Assembly (NCBI GenBank): GCA_951406725.2
Contig: OX597840.1
Span: 29,326,001 to 29,390,000, forward strand
Reading direction: 5' to 3'
From: Octopus vulgaris
Taxonomy: Eukaryota
DNA: 64,000 nucleotides
The translations under genes were made by a program, and so were the position numbers. Below the pieces are notes generated by a model that saw only the letters and a program-made list of their open reading frames with translations, did not search any database and was not told where the DNA came from. Within the stretch, counting starts at the first letter, position 1. Every line of letters starts with the position of its first letter. Positions 7,870-51,064 of the stretch are shown here, in pieces.

Positions 7870-8380
7870 AAATTCTATAGTTATAAGCATAATTATAATT
7901 AGAGTTCAGCAAATTGCTTCACCACATCCCAAAATTTAGAAATAGCAGTTAAATACTATTCCTCTACTATAAGATATCTCCCAGAGAGCAATACTCCTAA
8001 TTCATGTAGGTAAAGAGAAAAAATAACGAATCCACCAGGCTTTGATGAGCCACATACGCGTTTCTGGATTAAAGATATGTAAAATTTTATTGTGGTTGAT
8101 CAAAGCTAGGTGGATTCGTTATTTTTTCTCTTTACCCGTATGAGTTGTAGAGTATTGCTGTCTAGGAGATATCTTATGGTAGTAGAATAGTATTTAACTG
8201 CTATTTCTAAATTTCGGTATGTGGTGAAGAGAATTTGGCTGAACCCTAATTATAATTAGGCTTATAATTACAAAATTTTTATATAAGGTTACCGATAATG
8301 ATTCTTTTAACATACTAAACTACTTTGTAAAATTATTAATTATTAATTAATTAATTACTTAATTAATTTTACCCTTTATT
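7870..8380 (+). mobile_element. Foldback Penelope-like pLTR remnant with the 3' half of a hammerhead in the inverted arm
   Basis: Arms ~7870-8054 and 8091-8278 are inverted. Minus strand at 8050-8064 reads GAAACGCGUA-ugugg. Flanked by (TA)n/(CA)n. Confidence 0.7.
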
Positions 8381-8835
8381 ATATATATATATATATATAT
8401 ATATATATATATATATATATATATATATATATATATATATATATATATATATATATATATATATATATATATATATATATATATATATATATATATATAT
8501 ATTGTATGTATGTATATATATACTACTTGGATATATATATATATATATATATATATATATATATTTGTATGTATGTATATATATACATACTTACATATAT
8601 ATATATACATTATATATATATATATATATATATATATATATGTATGTATGTATGTATTTTTATATATATATATATATATATATGTATGTATGTATATTTT
8701 ATATATATATATATATATATATATATATATATATATGTATGTATATAGACAACAATGCAAATAAAGTGATAAAACTGCTTGGATTTGATATACAATATAT
8801 ATATATATATTATGTGTGTGTATATACATATACAT
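8380..8835. repeat. (TA)n/(TATG)n microsatellite
   Basis: Direct inspection. Confidence 0.95.
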
Positions 8836-8881
8836 GTAAATAGTGAGTAAGCAAAGTTTGAAATTTTTCAGAGGATGAATA

Positions 8882-9095
8882 TTCAAGTATAAATATAAAG
8901 ATATTTATATATTAACAGAGCAAACTTACACAGAATACAAAGACACGGAAAAATAAAGGGGAGAAGAAGTTATGGTGCTTAGCTGTCAGGCTTCTAACAT
9001 CATACCTCCTCTTCCCCTTCACCGTTCTCTGTCTTTTGTGCTTTGTGTAAATTTGCTCTGTTAATATCAAAATGTCTAAATAGTTATACTTGAAT
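8882..9095. repeat. Diverged foldback (inverted arms ~100 bp) next to microsatellite
   Basis: attcaagtataa...atattaacagagcaaacttacaca versus tgtgtaaatttgctctgttaatat...ttatacttgaat. Confidence 0.7.
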
Positions 9096-9344
9096 GTGTG
9101 TATGTATGTGTGTATAGCAAGTTGACACTTTGTGTACCGTTTATTATAGTTATTTATTAATTATAAAATTTTATTGATTAGCTGCTATTTAACGGCATTA
9201 TTGTTTACTGCCACTAATATCATTGTTATTGTTATTATAAATTATTTACATATTTACTGCTAATGATGATGGTGATAATAATAATAATAATAATAATAAT
9301 AATAATAATAATAATAATAATAATAATGCTAATAATGATAGTAA

Positions 9345-9762
9345 TGCGATCACAATATAGCGGCAAAAGAATTTGACATGATTAGTAAATATAAAGACCT
9401 GCTAATAGAAATTGAAAAAATGTGGCATCTCAAGGCAACTACAGTACCAGTGATTGTAGGATCTCTAGGAATGATAAAAAAAAGGTACTGAAACCTATTT
9501 GAAAATGATACCAGGCTTACCATCCCTACAGAAAGTGCAAAAAATCGTGTTAACTGGAACGGCTCATGTACTGAGACGAGCATTATCGCTGTGAAAACAA
9601 CATCCATCCATGAATTTATTTATTTATTAATTTTTTTAAATACATATTTTACCTGTGAATTTTCATGTGTAATCTGGGAATGCATACAATGAGCTTCTCT
9701 GCCCTAGGTGTATGGAAAACGCTCGGCGAGAAACGGAAGAAAATTTGAAGAAAGAAGGAAAA
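9345..9762 (+). mobile_element. 5'-truncated R4/Dong-clade non-LTR retrotransposon (restriction-like endonuclease C-terminus plus 3' UTR) inside (TAA)n
   Basis: Manual translation CDHNIAAKEFDMISKYKDLLIEIEKMWHLKATTVPVIVGSLGMIKK / GTETYLKMIPGLPSLQKVQKIVLTGTAHVLRRALSL-stop (9594), one frameshift in an A-run. K..KY..L and PVIVGSLG motifs are typical of RLE elements. (TAA)n on both sides. Confidence 0.85.
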
Positions 9763-10451
9763 AATAATAATAATAATAATAATAATAATAATAATAATAA
9801 TGATAGTAATAATAATAATGATAGTAATAATAATAATAATAATAATTGATAGTAATAATAATAATGATAATAATGATAGTAATAATGATAACAATAATGA
9901 TAGTAATAATAATAATAATGATAACAATAATGATAGTAATAATAATAATAATAATGATAATAATAATGATAGTAATAATAATAATGATAATAATGATAGT
10001 AATAATAATAATAATAATGATAATAATAATGATAATAATAATAATAATTATAATAATAATAATGTTAATAATAATAATGATAATAATAATAATAATAATG
10101 ATAATAATAATGATAGTAATAATAATAATGATAATAATGATAGTAATAATAATAATAATAATGATAATAATAATGATAATAATAATAATAATTATAATAA
10201 TAATAATGTTAATAATAATAATGATAATAATAATGATAGTAATAATAATAATAATAATAATTGATAGTAATAATAATAATGTTAATAATAATAATGATAA
10301 TAATGATAGTAATAATGATAATAATAATGATAGTAATAATAATAATGATAATAATGATAGTAATAATAATAATAATAATGATAATAATAATGATAATAAT
10401 AATGATAATAATAATAATAATAATAATAATAATAATAATAATAATAATAAT
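9763..10451. repeat. Compound (AAT)n/(GAT) microsatellite
   Basis: Direct inspection. Confidence 0.95.
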
Positions 10452-10829
10452 ATCTATATGAATATTTATTTGACTATTTACTCACTTACCACAAATTATG
10501 CACTGGAATTGTTTTGAATTTAGCGTGAGCCTGTTCAACACTTAACGGACTCAGCAAGACAAGTAGGTTTTTGACACTGGGTATCTAGTAAGACCTGCTG
10601 AGCAGAATTGGGGAATAATCCCGAATTCGAAATCATGATACAGGTGTATCTAAATACCTAATTCTACAGCTTTCAGCTGAGTTAATGAGTTTAATTTTTC
10701 CTTGCTTGTCTTCCCAATTTCTGCTGGTCTGTTATGGTTTTTCAGTGAGTTTGGTGGCTTGTTTGAGAAATTTAACACTTATTTCTGGTACTTCTTTTAC
10801 TCTTTATTATAATTATTTATTAATTATAA

Positions 10830-48470: not shown

Positions 48471-48610
48471 CCATGGGTCATTAGAGTTTGTTATGCATGG
48501 AATGAAAATTAGTAACTAATTACAGCAAACATTCTCCAAGTACTGTCTCTTTCAAAATCGATTGACACCCAGCATGCAGAATCCCTGTGTGTATGTATAT
48601 GTGTGTGTGT

Positions 48611-49046
48611 GCAGGAGTGGTTGTGTGGTAAGTAGCTTGCTAACCAACCACATGGTTCCGGGTTCAGTCACACTGCATGGCATCTTGGGCAAATGTCTTC
48701 TGCTATAGCCCCGGGCCGACCAATGCCTTGTGAGAGGATTTGGTAGGTGGAAACTGAAAGAAGCCCGTCGTATATATATATATATATATATATATATATA
48801 TATATATATATATATGTGTGTCTGTGTGTTTGTGTGTCTGTGTTTGTCCCCTAGCATTGCTTGACAACCAATGCTGGTGTGTTTACGTCCCCGTCACTTA
48901 GCGGTTCGGCAAAAGAGACCGATAGAATAAGTACTGGGCTTACAAAGAATAAGTCCCGGGGTCGAGTTGCTCGATTAAAGGCGGTGCTCCAGCATGGCCG
49001 CAGTCAAATGACTGAAACAAGTAAAAGAGTATAAGAGTAAAAGAGT
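48611..49046 (+). mobile_element. SINE family A
   Basis: Full copy; followed by inverted partial copy 49072-49232. Confidence 0.9.
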
Positions 49047-49697
49047 ATACATATATGTGTGTATATATTTTTTTACTTGTTTCAGTAATGTGAGTGTGGC
49101 CATGCTGGAGCACCACTTTAGTCGAGCAAATCAAGCCCAGGACTTATTCTTTGTAAGCCTAGTACTTATTCTATCGGTATCTTTTGCCGAACCGCTAAGT
49201 TACAGGGACGTAATCACACCAGCATCGGTTGTCACGGGGAGTAGATGACAAAGGGACAACTGAAGAAGGGGAATATTCCTTGTGTTGTATGTCTTGTTTC
49301 ACTGGGTTTTTTTGTCGTTGTTCCCCCCAAAAAGTTCGTTTCCTATGTTTTTGATTTTATGTTTTCGTTTCTCATTGTGTTCAACGTTTTTTTGATGTCC
49401 TGTACCTATATATTCATGTATATATACATACAGATATAGGTATGTACATATATATATATGTATATATGCATATATTTATATATTATTTATATTATATATA
49501 TATACATACAAATACATGTATACATGCATATATATGTGTATATATATATATATATATATATATATATATATATATATATATATATATAAATGAAAGAATG
49601 GAGTCGAACGAAGATGTTAACAAAATTCCTTTACAAAATTCCTTGTAGGCAATCATCGAAATTTTTGTTTGTCTTGTTGTCGAGAGAGGCTCCCTTT

Positions 49698-49779
49698 CTT
49701 TCCTGGTGAGAAGTTTGCATAATGCACTCTTTATTTCTTTGGAATGAAAACATGCTGTCTTCGAAACATGTGTCGAGAG
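49698..49779 (+). ncRNA. Type I hammerhead ribozyme with A6G change, in (TA)n-flanked island 49588-49884
   Basis: cuuuc-CUGGUGA-gaag...cuuc-GAAAC-augu-GUC-gagag. Confidence 0.7.
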
Positions 49780-50144
49780 TAAAGGAATTTTGTTAAGTTT
49801 TTTGACGTGAATTTGCTACCCAGGTTTCGGTTAAACGAATTTTCCATGCTGACGATAAACATAGGATAATTCATTCACCTACTTATATATATATATATAT
49901 ATATATATATATATATATATATATATATATATATATATATATATATATAATATATATTATATAATTAGGGTTTAGTAAAATGAATTACTTTGCCACATAC
50001 TGAACTTAGTAGAAATAGCAGCCAAAAAAAATTTTCTTAGCATTTCTACAACTTAAAGAAAATTTCTCTCAGATAATGTTTACTCCAGACAGCCCACGAA
50101 GGTTTGGAGGTAAATACAGAAAAATATCACAAGTACATAGATCG

Positions 50145-50207
50145 TTTGAGTACGTCAACGTTTCAAGATTAGCCAAATAAAATCAGCATTTCTATCGTCA
50201 GCTCAAA
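50145..50207 (-). ncRNA. Type I hammerhead ribozyme in (TA)n-flanked island 49961-50337
   Basis: uuugag-CUGACGA-(stem II aga...ucu)-GAAAC-guugac-GUA-cucaaa; 6-bp stem I. Confidence 0.85.
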
Positions 50208-51064
50208 ATTTCTTAATTTGGATTTGGAAACACTAAAAAGAAGGAACTTTACCTATCAGCGAACTTATCGCTTCAGATGAACCACTCCGACTAACAGTGT
50301 CAACAAATTCAAAATGCGCAGGCGTAAATTTCTTCAATATATATATATATATATATATATATATATATATATAAATTAATCAATATAGGGTGGCAAAAAA
50401 AAATTTTGTAGAATTCTTTTGCCACCAGCGGCCTAGTAGGAAAAAATTAAAATAGTCAAAGACCATTTTTAAGTTCAACATCAACAATAAAGGAACGGCC
50501 ATAATAGGCCATTCACCCACTAGAAATAACAGCCAAAGCTTCAACCGCAAATAAAAGTTAATTCAGTAAACCAGGAGAAAATTTAAAAAACATTTACCCT
50601 GTAATTTCTTATACGATATACCGTTTCATCTGCTGATTAATGGTAAACTAACCTGATTAAATTAAATCAAGCCAATTTACAGGGTAAATGTTTTTTAAAT
50701 TTTCTCCTGGTTTACTGAATTAACTTTTATTTGCGGTTGAAGCTTTGGCTGTTATTTCTAGTGGGTGAATGGCCTATTATATGGCCGTTCCTTTATTGTT
50801 GATGTTGAACTTAAAAATGGTCTTTGACTATTTTAATTTTTTCCTACTAGGCCGCTGGTGGCAAAGAATTCTACAAAATTTTTTTTGCCACCCTATATTG
50901 ATTAATTATGAATTTTCTGGTTAATTCCGTAATGGAATCGACGGCTTATATTTATTTGCTGCCGATAAATTGGCGCGAGTGCGACGATTTGAAAATTTTA
51001 GGTCAGATATTAACTTGGCAACGTCGGAAATGCCTCGTGAAAATATCTGTTCCGTCTTGGGCTC

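Follow-up and report, generated by a model that had tools for sequence, protein, structure and literature searches.

Head-to-head hammerhead elements in the Octopus vulgaris genome: two fixed 3' ends per family, and a pile-up of arm starts after the predicted cut in two families

Introduction

Penelope-like elements (PLEs) have been described as leaving inverted 5'-truncated copies with tails at one end only and a bias for (TA)n targets (PMC8557442; PMC3846280; here as throughout, papers cited by identifier are drawn on in part). The role of the hammerhead ribozyme in PLEs that carry an endonuclease (EN+) has been called 'still unclear' (PMC8557442). Here we analyse a stretch of 64,000 nucleotides (nt) from Octopus vulgaris (contig OX597840.1, positions 29,326,001 to 29,390,000), which we call the window. 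It holds four non-coding elements, E1 to E4, each built of two arms joined head to head near a predicted hammerhead cleavage site. A reading of the window from its letters alone, here called the sequence-only reading, had taken these junctions as a footprint of ribozyme cleavage and cleavage as the source of the inversion. We followed the families of these elements (F1 to F4) and one further family (F7), names coined in this analysis, through the 2.8-Gb genome. The inversion very probably arises by twin target-primed reverse transcription followed by joining of the two complementary DNA (cDNA) ends. In F3 and F4, stops just after the cut probably mark that part of the template RNA had cleaved itself. 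The signal on this known type of element is real but partial, and the integration model is clearer than the one first proposed.

The EN+ PLEs of the Neptune/Nematis type resemble our elements in their partial tandems, in the adjacent inverted 5'-truncated copy with a tail at one end only (PMC8557442, PMC3846280), in the (TA)n target bias, in a type I hammerhead near the 3' end and in microhomology at the 5' junction. They differ in that the four elements here are non-coding and have tails of about 45-105 nt, against 30-40 in PLEs; moreover, the near-strict pairing of a short and a long arm described below, and a histogram of arm starts against the cut site, do not appear in the text of PMC8557442 and PMC3846280 that was examined. 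In vitro, the anole Poseidon PAc, a predicted dimer, cleaves and extends both strands of AT-rich DNA from two internal reverse-transcription start sites that define the tail, and no difference in start site was seen between strands (PMC11167929). Two internal starts that define the tail are a shared trait, whereas the octopus genome shows one short and one long start per insertion.

Animal non-LTR (long terminal repeat) retrozymes, proposed as non-autonomous PLE derivatives with linear and circular RNAs, share with our families the non-coding tandem units and the type I hammerhead (PMC7229834; bioRxiv 10.64898/2026.07.22.740005). Four of our families are such tandems with a hammerhead in each unit. 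The F2 unit (352 nt) lies inside the stated retrozyme range of 150-450 bp, but those of F4 (493 nt, in arrays of up to nine), F1 (about 550 nt) and F7 (564 nt) are somewhat longer, and F3 extends over more than 1.1 kb with no tandem seen. The word 'inverted' is absent from the main text of PMC7229834 and occurs only in a reference title in bioRxiv 10.64898/2026.07.22.740005. Minimal hammerheads, the U3-A8 variant and opposite-strand pairs have been described (PMC4209133). Ribozyme sites that set 5' junctions are known from R2, with a ribozyme like that of hepatitis delta virus (HDV; PMC3774820), and from Perere-3, with twister variants (PMC8501958). Those are long interspersed nuclear elements (LINEs) whose ribozyme is at the 5' end and whose single cDNA is joined to the target DNA. 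Here the hammerhead lies within a permuted unit, RTs often pass through it, and the joining is between two cDNAs. The part of PMC8490949 consulted holds nothing further on this question. We found no paper that maps PLE or retrozyme junctions to the hammerhead cut or states the short and long pairing, although supplements and older PLE reviews may hold one.

In L1 twin priming, the place further upstream where the second primer anneals is a matter of chance, and the parts of the copy do not overlap. The likeness is that reverse transcription is primed from either end of the target and that microhomology joins the cDNAs into an inversion. Here, however, the two starts lie at fixed positions close together, both arms copy the same stretch and insertions usually have two arms. 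Twin priming of the L1 type, with its non-overlapping upstream inverted part, does not fit our arms, which overlap and end at two fixed sites.

The origin of the inverted repeat and one-sided tail of PLEs is unexplained, and pairing of a short and a long start gives a simple model for both. If true, cDNA ends that pile up at the cut in some families only would offer indirect evidence of cleavage in vivo, readable from any assembly; copies in this genome number in the thousands, and F4 and F3 can be contrasted with F7, F1 and F2.

Two arms with two fixed 3' ends

All positions are relative to the predicted hammerhead cut; +1 is the first base after NUH. We picked loci by sequence at or near the 3' ends of arms, so that the choice is independent of the junction, and sampled insertions of the five families across the genome. 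In each window element, both arms are sense copies that diverge from the junction (Table 1). The sequence-only reading had described an inverted copy of downstream sequence ahead of each sense arm. The inverted partner arm is there, but in E1 and E4 it starts upstream of the cut, at -34 and -65, and carries the site intact.

Each family has two fixed 3' ends, about 45-105 nt apart, that abut (TA)n: +132 and about +237 in F4, +170 and +216 in F2, about +195 and +289 in F7, and about +187 and +285 in F1. When both ends of a two-armed insertion are in view, one is short and the other long in 140 of 147 cases (F4 64/65, F2 41/42, F7 18/21, F1 17/19), and two short ends never occur together; as F4 and F2 were anchored on the short end, only the partner arm is informative for these two families. 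A (TA)3 tract lies within 16 nt of the outer ends in 159/159, 109/110 and 53/58 cases. Either arm may be the longer one, and either may span several units. Two arms are the usual outcome (71 of 91 F4 insertions), the other 20 being one-armed. Since the two arms have separate fixed end sites, both against (TA)n, the cDNAs were probably primed independently of each other.

Minor alleles are also common to the two arms of an insertion 5-10 times as often as to arms taken from separate insertions (F4, 25/64 against 4% between insertions; F2, 44/145 against 6%; F7, 11/25 against 7%). This sharing implies that both arms come from one RNA or one source locus, although they may have been homogenised later. 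Their junctions look like joined ends: among 62 simple F4 junctions, 35 have microhomology, 5 are blunt and 22 contain fill-in, and the other families are similar. Three marks of a non-autonomous PLE are in view, namely an inverted 5'-truncated copy, a tail at one end and a microsatellite target.

Some fill-ins are themselves repetitive. Six F4 junctions (L068, L072, L086, L134, L135 and L139) repeat in tandem, as many as about 20 times, the 8-9-nt T-run/AAA word found at +22..+30, and the F2 junction L262 holds 15 copies of CTT. Tandem fill-ins of this kind are the product of iterative slip-back synthesis, either telomerase-like repeat addition by the PLE reverse transcriptase (RT) or templated end joining by a host polymerase.

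Arm starts relative to the predicted cut

The junction positions given by the sequence-only reading hold for all four window elements: +1 in E1 (8091), +10 in E2 (18403), +9 in E3 (30405) and +8 in E4 (50677). For E1, the GUA lies at 8057-8055 in the minus-strand arm, and the complete hammerhead is visible in the relatives L197, L203 and L206. The E2 start was placed by the 352-nt period from the cut at 18061/18060; since the six junction bases match the partner at 5 of 6 positions, the start may lie anywhere from +10 to +16. For E3, 30405 aligns to 38123, which is +9 relative to the cut at 38132/38131, and for E4 the cut lies at 51162/51163.

An arm start was scored as the furthest upstream match, and microhomology moves starts a few bases upstream. 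The F4 sample consists of the first 93 in genome order of 183 exact short-end matches; removing one duplicate junction and one N-flanked locus left 91 insertions and 162 arms. For F2, 70 of 85 exact matches gave 67 insertions and 109 arms once three duplicates or overlaps were removed, and for F1, 30 of 141 matches gave 28 insertions and 47 arms, mapped on nine natural references. The F3 sample takes all 21 matches (30 arms). Enlarged by 30 loci out of 1,218 BLAST candidates, and without the window copy, two repeats and nine of ten identical junctions, it becomes a pooled set of 56 arms. The best-scoring F7 loci of 862 candidates gave 33 insertions and 54 arms, with overlaps, the window copy and two badly parsed loci left out.

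In F4, 48 of 162 arms have their start in +1..+25, where the rate outside that interval predicts 6.8, and 21 have it in +1..+10, where 3.0 are predicted. The flanks show no such excess (8 against 8.0 in -25..-1; 5 against 10.5 in +26..+50). The peak is present in both arm classes (28 against 4.1 and 20 against 2.6) and persists in arms that have already read through the site at least once (13 against 3.2, P 3e-5); at the first pass, 35 of 132 arms stop there. Its rate ratio is 6.4 after covariates for AT content, A/T runs, self-complementarity and pairing. A preferred arm length of about 120 nt was considered, as F2 arms are mostly short, but was rejected on the presence of the F4 peak in both arm classes and after read-through.

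F3 gives the sharper picture of the edge. Fifteen arms reach +25, and 11 of them go no further than +1..+25 (P 6e-7). The 56 arms of the pooled set include 28 with a start in +1..+25, 17 independent arms with one in +1..+10 and only 6 with one upstream, and the edge reaches +1, +2 and +3.

Read-through is common too. Roughly 98 of 162 F4 arms cross the cut site at least once, and all 175 crossed sites keep the exact spacing. Scar-free sites imply that those templates were uncleaved or re-ligated, and they led us to reject end-to-end template jumping as the source of read-through. In two internal deletions (L288:330-430 and L073:1495-1660) the first missing base is no more than 3 nt from the predicted cut, as though a 3' end at that point had received a jumping RT; they are anecdotal, and we count them on the side of cleavage.

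The cut is not what produces the inversion. Of the 71 two-armed F4 insertions, 42 have no arm that starts in +1..+25, whereas 5 of the 20 F4 insertions with a single arm, and so no inversion, do start there. A start in +1..+10 is found in 17 of 71 two-armed insertions in F4, 4 of 42 in F2 and 1 of 19 in F1. With most inversions outside the peak and some one-armed copies within it, the ribozyme sets one preferred stop and is not the cause of the inversion.

Predicted hammerheads

A type I core (CUGANGA ... GAAA ... NUH) is present in F1, F2, F3, F4 and F7, and its U3-A8 variant in the PLE described below. Under a core constraint, stems I and II form; stem III has 1-3 base pairs (bp) and a mostly palindromic loop, and stem I is open. 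The base of stem II in F1 contains a C-A mismatch. The predicted stability of stem II separates the two families with a peak (-24.8 and -22.7 kcal/mol) from the others (-8.7, -5.1, -2.3 and 0). Stem I has 4 bp and -0.6 kcal/mol in F3, 8 bp in F4 and -7.6 kcal/mol in F2, and in F1 and F7 it is similar to that of the peak families.

The Rfam model Hammerhead_1 gives 13 bits for 38132-38218 against a gathering score of 34, and three other scanned stretches returned no hammerhead match. A long stem II and a short stem III lie outside that model; the scan of the whole window was dominated by microsatellite matches. These ribozymes are predicted from core motif and helices, with weak support from Rfam.

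An autonomous Penelope-like element

The window holds one truncated autonomous PLE (Table 1), a candidate for the type of enzyme that mobilises the small families. A full unit of 3,988 nt lies at L434:2666-6654, with two overlapping frames of 492 and 869 amino acids from stop to stop and a hammerhead with a conserved U3-A8 core and a 2-bp stem II. The 869-amino-acid frame matches RVT_1 (E 3e-7); its linker and GIY-YIG-like motifs were read by eye, and no GIY-YIG match came from Pfam. [quoted passage not shown] At first look the family has 25,826 candidates, with the same head-to-head pairs and two 3' ends. PLE arms that start near the ribozyme cluster at +47..+66. With L434 as reference none falls in +1..+25, and with the window copy as reference one arm lies at +6; these arms form a small sample that was chosen by length and mixes subfamilies.

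Does the pile-up record cleavage?

We favour cleavage because the edge of the pile-up sits at the scissile bond or stem I, not at the much stronger stem II, and this is clearest in F3. The stability of stem II in the peak families and the tendency of F4 arm pairs to stop in the peak together (16/9/5/41, P 5e-6) support the same reading. The following observations weigh against it. There is no significant peak in F2 (10/109 arms in +1..+25 against 5.9 expected, P 0.08) or F1 (4/47 arms; 4/15 of those reaching the region, P 0.40). F7 has 1 of 54 arms there (0/38 at first pass, 1/10 later) despite an intact, conserved hammerhead with all three helices. In F4 the edge falls at +5..+8, the base of stem I, with 4 of 51 starts in -3..+4, which a stall explains equally well, and its piles at +5, +8 and +22 fit microhomology plus the base of stem I. 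The +1..+25 interval has an AT content of 0.80 in F3 and 0.76 in F4 against 0.52-0.64 elsewhere, which makes these the most AT-rich of the non-autonomous families. Peaks also occur away from the cut, at +60..+86 in F1 (15/47), +201..+225 in F4 (15/162), about +67..+120 in F7 and +47..+66 in the PLE. The link between stem II stability and the peak was noticed after the fact, across six families. No alignment longer than 22 nt joins the small families to the one PLE family compared. For PAc, finally, insertion in vitro did not depend on ribozyme cleavage, and RNA-seq revealed no ends at the cut (PMC11167929), a difference from the stop at the cut in two families here.

The F1 and F7 stop peaks, 60-120 nt after the cut, are not accounted for by the ribozyme. 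Exact +1 or +2 starts in F1, F2 and F7 are too few for a signal, and one apparent +1 start, in L175, was discarded, being at about -5 in its own subfamily.

A rival account has twin priming operate in the same way but lets the RT stall at a folded, uncleaved hammerhead or a bound protein, so that the peak would reflect structure. F4 starts do pile at +5 (8 arms) and +8 (9 arms), where the 8-bp stem I has its 3' base, and are sparse in -3..+4; stem II is at its most stable in the families with a peak; an F4 hairpin at about +185..+221 draws the stops seen in +201..+225; and the scar-free read-through sites make uncleaved or ligated templates common. We nonetheless judge a stall unlikely. F4 shows no excess in -25..-1, at the 3' edge of the far stronger stem II. 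In F3 none of 56 arms starts in -14..-1, although its strong stem II begins at -13 and its stem I is so weak. Peaks are also missing where stem I is stronger (F2) or similar (F1 and F7). It is distinctly improbable, in turn, that the ribozyme is a bystander and that AT-rich, self-complementary tracts (TTAC..GTAA, TTTAAA, TATATA) form a hot spot for microhomology joining or for later trimming at the palindrome centre. The AT-richness of the two families, the use of these microhomologies at junctions 8/15 and 5/22, and the F1, F7 and PLE peaks in other tracts away from the cut speak for such a hot spot. Against it, the F4 rate ratio survives the covariates, and equally AT-rich 25-nt windows have rates 3-14 times lower; one-armed F4 insertions and arms with distant partners stop in the same interval; F3 is AT-rich throughout, yet its edge lies at +1. 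The PLE interval +1..+25, 96% AT and with the same palindromes as the small families, has no starts mapped against L434, with the limits of that sample given above.

Two further accounts fare worse. The 5' ends at +1..+8 might come from a transcription start or host nuclease site that happens to coincide with the cut, or from a 5'-truncated master copy or self-copying foldback. The position-specific peaks of F1 and F7, where no ribozyme lies, do show that other RNA ends or stops exist, and one F3 junction is present in ten identical copies. Such an origin is very improbable, however: coincidence with the cut in two unrelated families is unlikely, and a master copy gained no support, as F4 peak arms come from all haplotypes with varied junction partners and F3 read-through and stopped arms are intermixed on the tree (6 changes against a shuffled mean of 5.7; 132 columns, weak support). 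We give hardly any credence to the mechanism of the sequence-only reading, in which, as a general rule, an RT that reaches the cleaved 5' end switches template or primes the second strand and so creates the inversion. In its favour, the four junctions of the window all fall in +1..+10, an interval enriched genome-wide in F3 and F4. But inversions lie mostly elsewhere (42/71 in F4, 34/42 in F2, 17/19 in F1), non-inverted copies have the peak too, and partner arms have a second fixed end of their own against (TA)n, often exceed the first arm or run over several units, and include sequence upstream of the cut.

What survives of that reading is therefore the footprint and not the rule. A histogram of junctions against the cut, its suggested check, shows a pile-up in F4 and F3 and none in F1, F2 and F7 among the five families sampled, so that the footprint of a self-cleaved template is the best reading for two families, with no peak in the others or in the small PLE sample. 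Only two of the four window families rise above chance. With peaks confined to F3 and F4, the window junctions of E3 and E4 fall in a real peak, and the +1 match of E1 and the +10 match of E2 are probably luck.

Cleavage together with twin priming would fit the following sequence of events. A PLE RT-endonuclease dimer would cut both strands of the target, and one cDNA would be primed at each of the two internal start sites, on the same or a sister RNA. Many templates would be uncleaved multimers or ligated circles, as the scar-free read-through suggests, and the stops in F3 and F4 would be run-offs at a cleaved 5' end, trimmed by a few bases. End joining of the two cDNA 3' ends would then produce an inversion wherever the cDNAs had stopped. 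More tentatively, PLEs may integrate in this paired fashion by default, with one enzyme dimer priming from both ends of a (TA)n cut at two fixed sites on one RNA, and the cDNAs joined head to head. The junction map of a family might then be a fossil read-out of hammerhead cleavage in the germ line, which would have taken place on about one quarter of first passes in F4, on the majority in F3 and hardly ever in F7.

Tandem units and templates

F1 and F7 are 78% alike over 61 nt. A contig that closes on itself would be compatible with a circle or with a tandem. Four contig sets compared with F4 revealed neither starts nor ends, and none of the sequences containing the families is listed as RNA; neither result is counted as evidence here. 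Private alleles recur from unit to unit in five long F4 arms (L091, L094, L119, L121 and L123), in some cases between units that are not neighbours (1 and 3; 4 and 7). Such sharing hints that the templates were dimeric or trimeric circles, or that the source arrays were structured. Nine of 68 short-ended F2 arms (L254, L266, L267, L271, L280, L284, L290, L293 and L305) have a length of roughly one unit and stop at +140..+166, a little beyond the site where they themselves began; a single turn round a circular template would fit. The F3 insertion with an identical junction in ten copies on several contigs (L212, L215-L218, L220, L225 and L234-L236) is amplified as part of a larger unit.

Other features of the window

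Table 1. Elements, arms and predicted hammerheads in the window. Arm limits in signed numbers are counted from the predicted cut.
Feature	Position	Strand	Remarks
E1 (F1), short-ended arm	7866..8088	-	-34 to about +188; GAAAC-GC-GUA, predicted cut between 8055 and 8054
E1, long-ended arm	8091..8380	+	+1 to about +290, then (TA)n
E2 (F2, 352-nt unit), short-ended arm	17895..18403	-	+10 through one intact hammerhead to about +166
F2 predicted minimal type I hammerhead	18054..18099	-	core from 18093, N17 = 18061, +1 = 18060
E2, long-ended arm	18404..18486	+	about +137 to +219, then (TA)n
Autonomous PLE, 5'-truncated	25353..26604	-	RT thumb, CX4CxxC linker, C-terminal GIY-YIG-like motifs; predicted U3-A8 hammerhead, +1 = 25480
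E3 (F3), short-ended arm	30248..30397	-	about +14 to +165
E3, long-ended arm	30405..30657	+	+9 to about +260
F3 one-armed copy, intact predicted hammerhead	37967..39065	-	core 38218, N17 38132, +1 = 38131; long stem II
F7 (564-nt unit) one-armed copy with predicted hammerhead	49956..50336	-	core 50201, +1 = 50150
E4 (F4, 493-nt unit), long-ended arm	50374..50676	-	-65 to +237, cut site intact
E4, short-ended arm	50677..51784	+	+8 through two intact hammerheads to +132, then (TA)n
F4 predicted type I hammerhead	51065..51169	+	core 51072, N17 = 51162 (set by stem I pairing), long stem II

Three local foldbacks, at 7719-7843, 8881-9095 and 48862-49234, come in addition to those already reported. 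The first belongs to a head-to-head insertion at 7642-7843, with one short and one long arm between (TA)n runs and a perfectly symmetric palindromic centre near 7781; its short arms contain no hammerhead. The inverted pairs at 8881-9095 and 48862-49234 show no hammerhead motif in the scan, and the latter consists of two copies of the window's most abundant dispersed repeat.

The foldbacks near 42.6 and 63 kb had been set apart in the sequence-only reading as exceptions to its rule. They are head-to-head pairs (42613-42959 and 63052-63357) with a hammerhead in both arms, near the 3' end of the aligned arms (+1 at 42913/42658 and at 63351/63058, respectively). Their aligned arms end within about 50 nt after the cut, and they are barely a test of that rule. 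The 63052-63357 pair lies outside (TA)n, and the two pairs probably represent another PLE clade.

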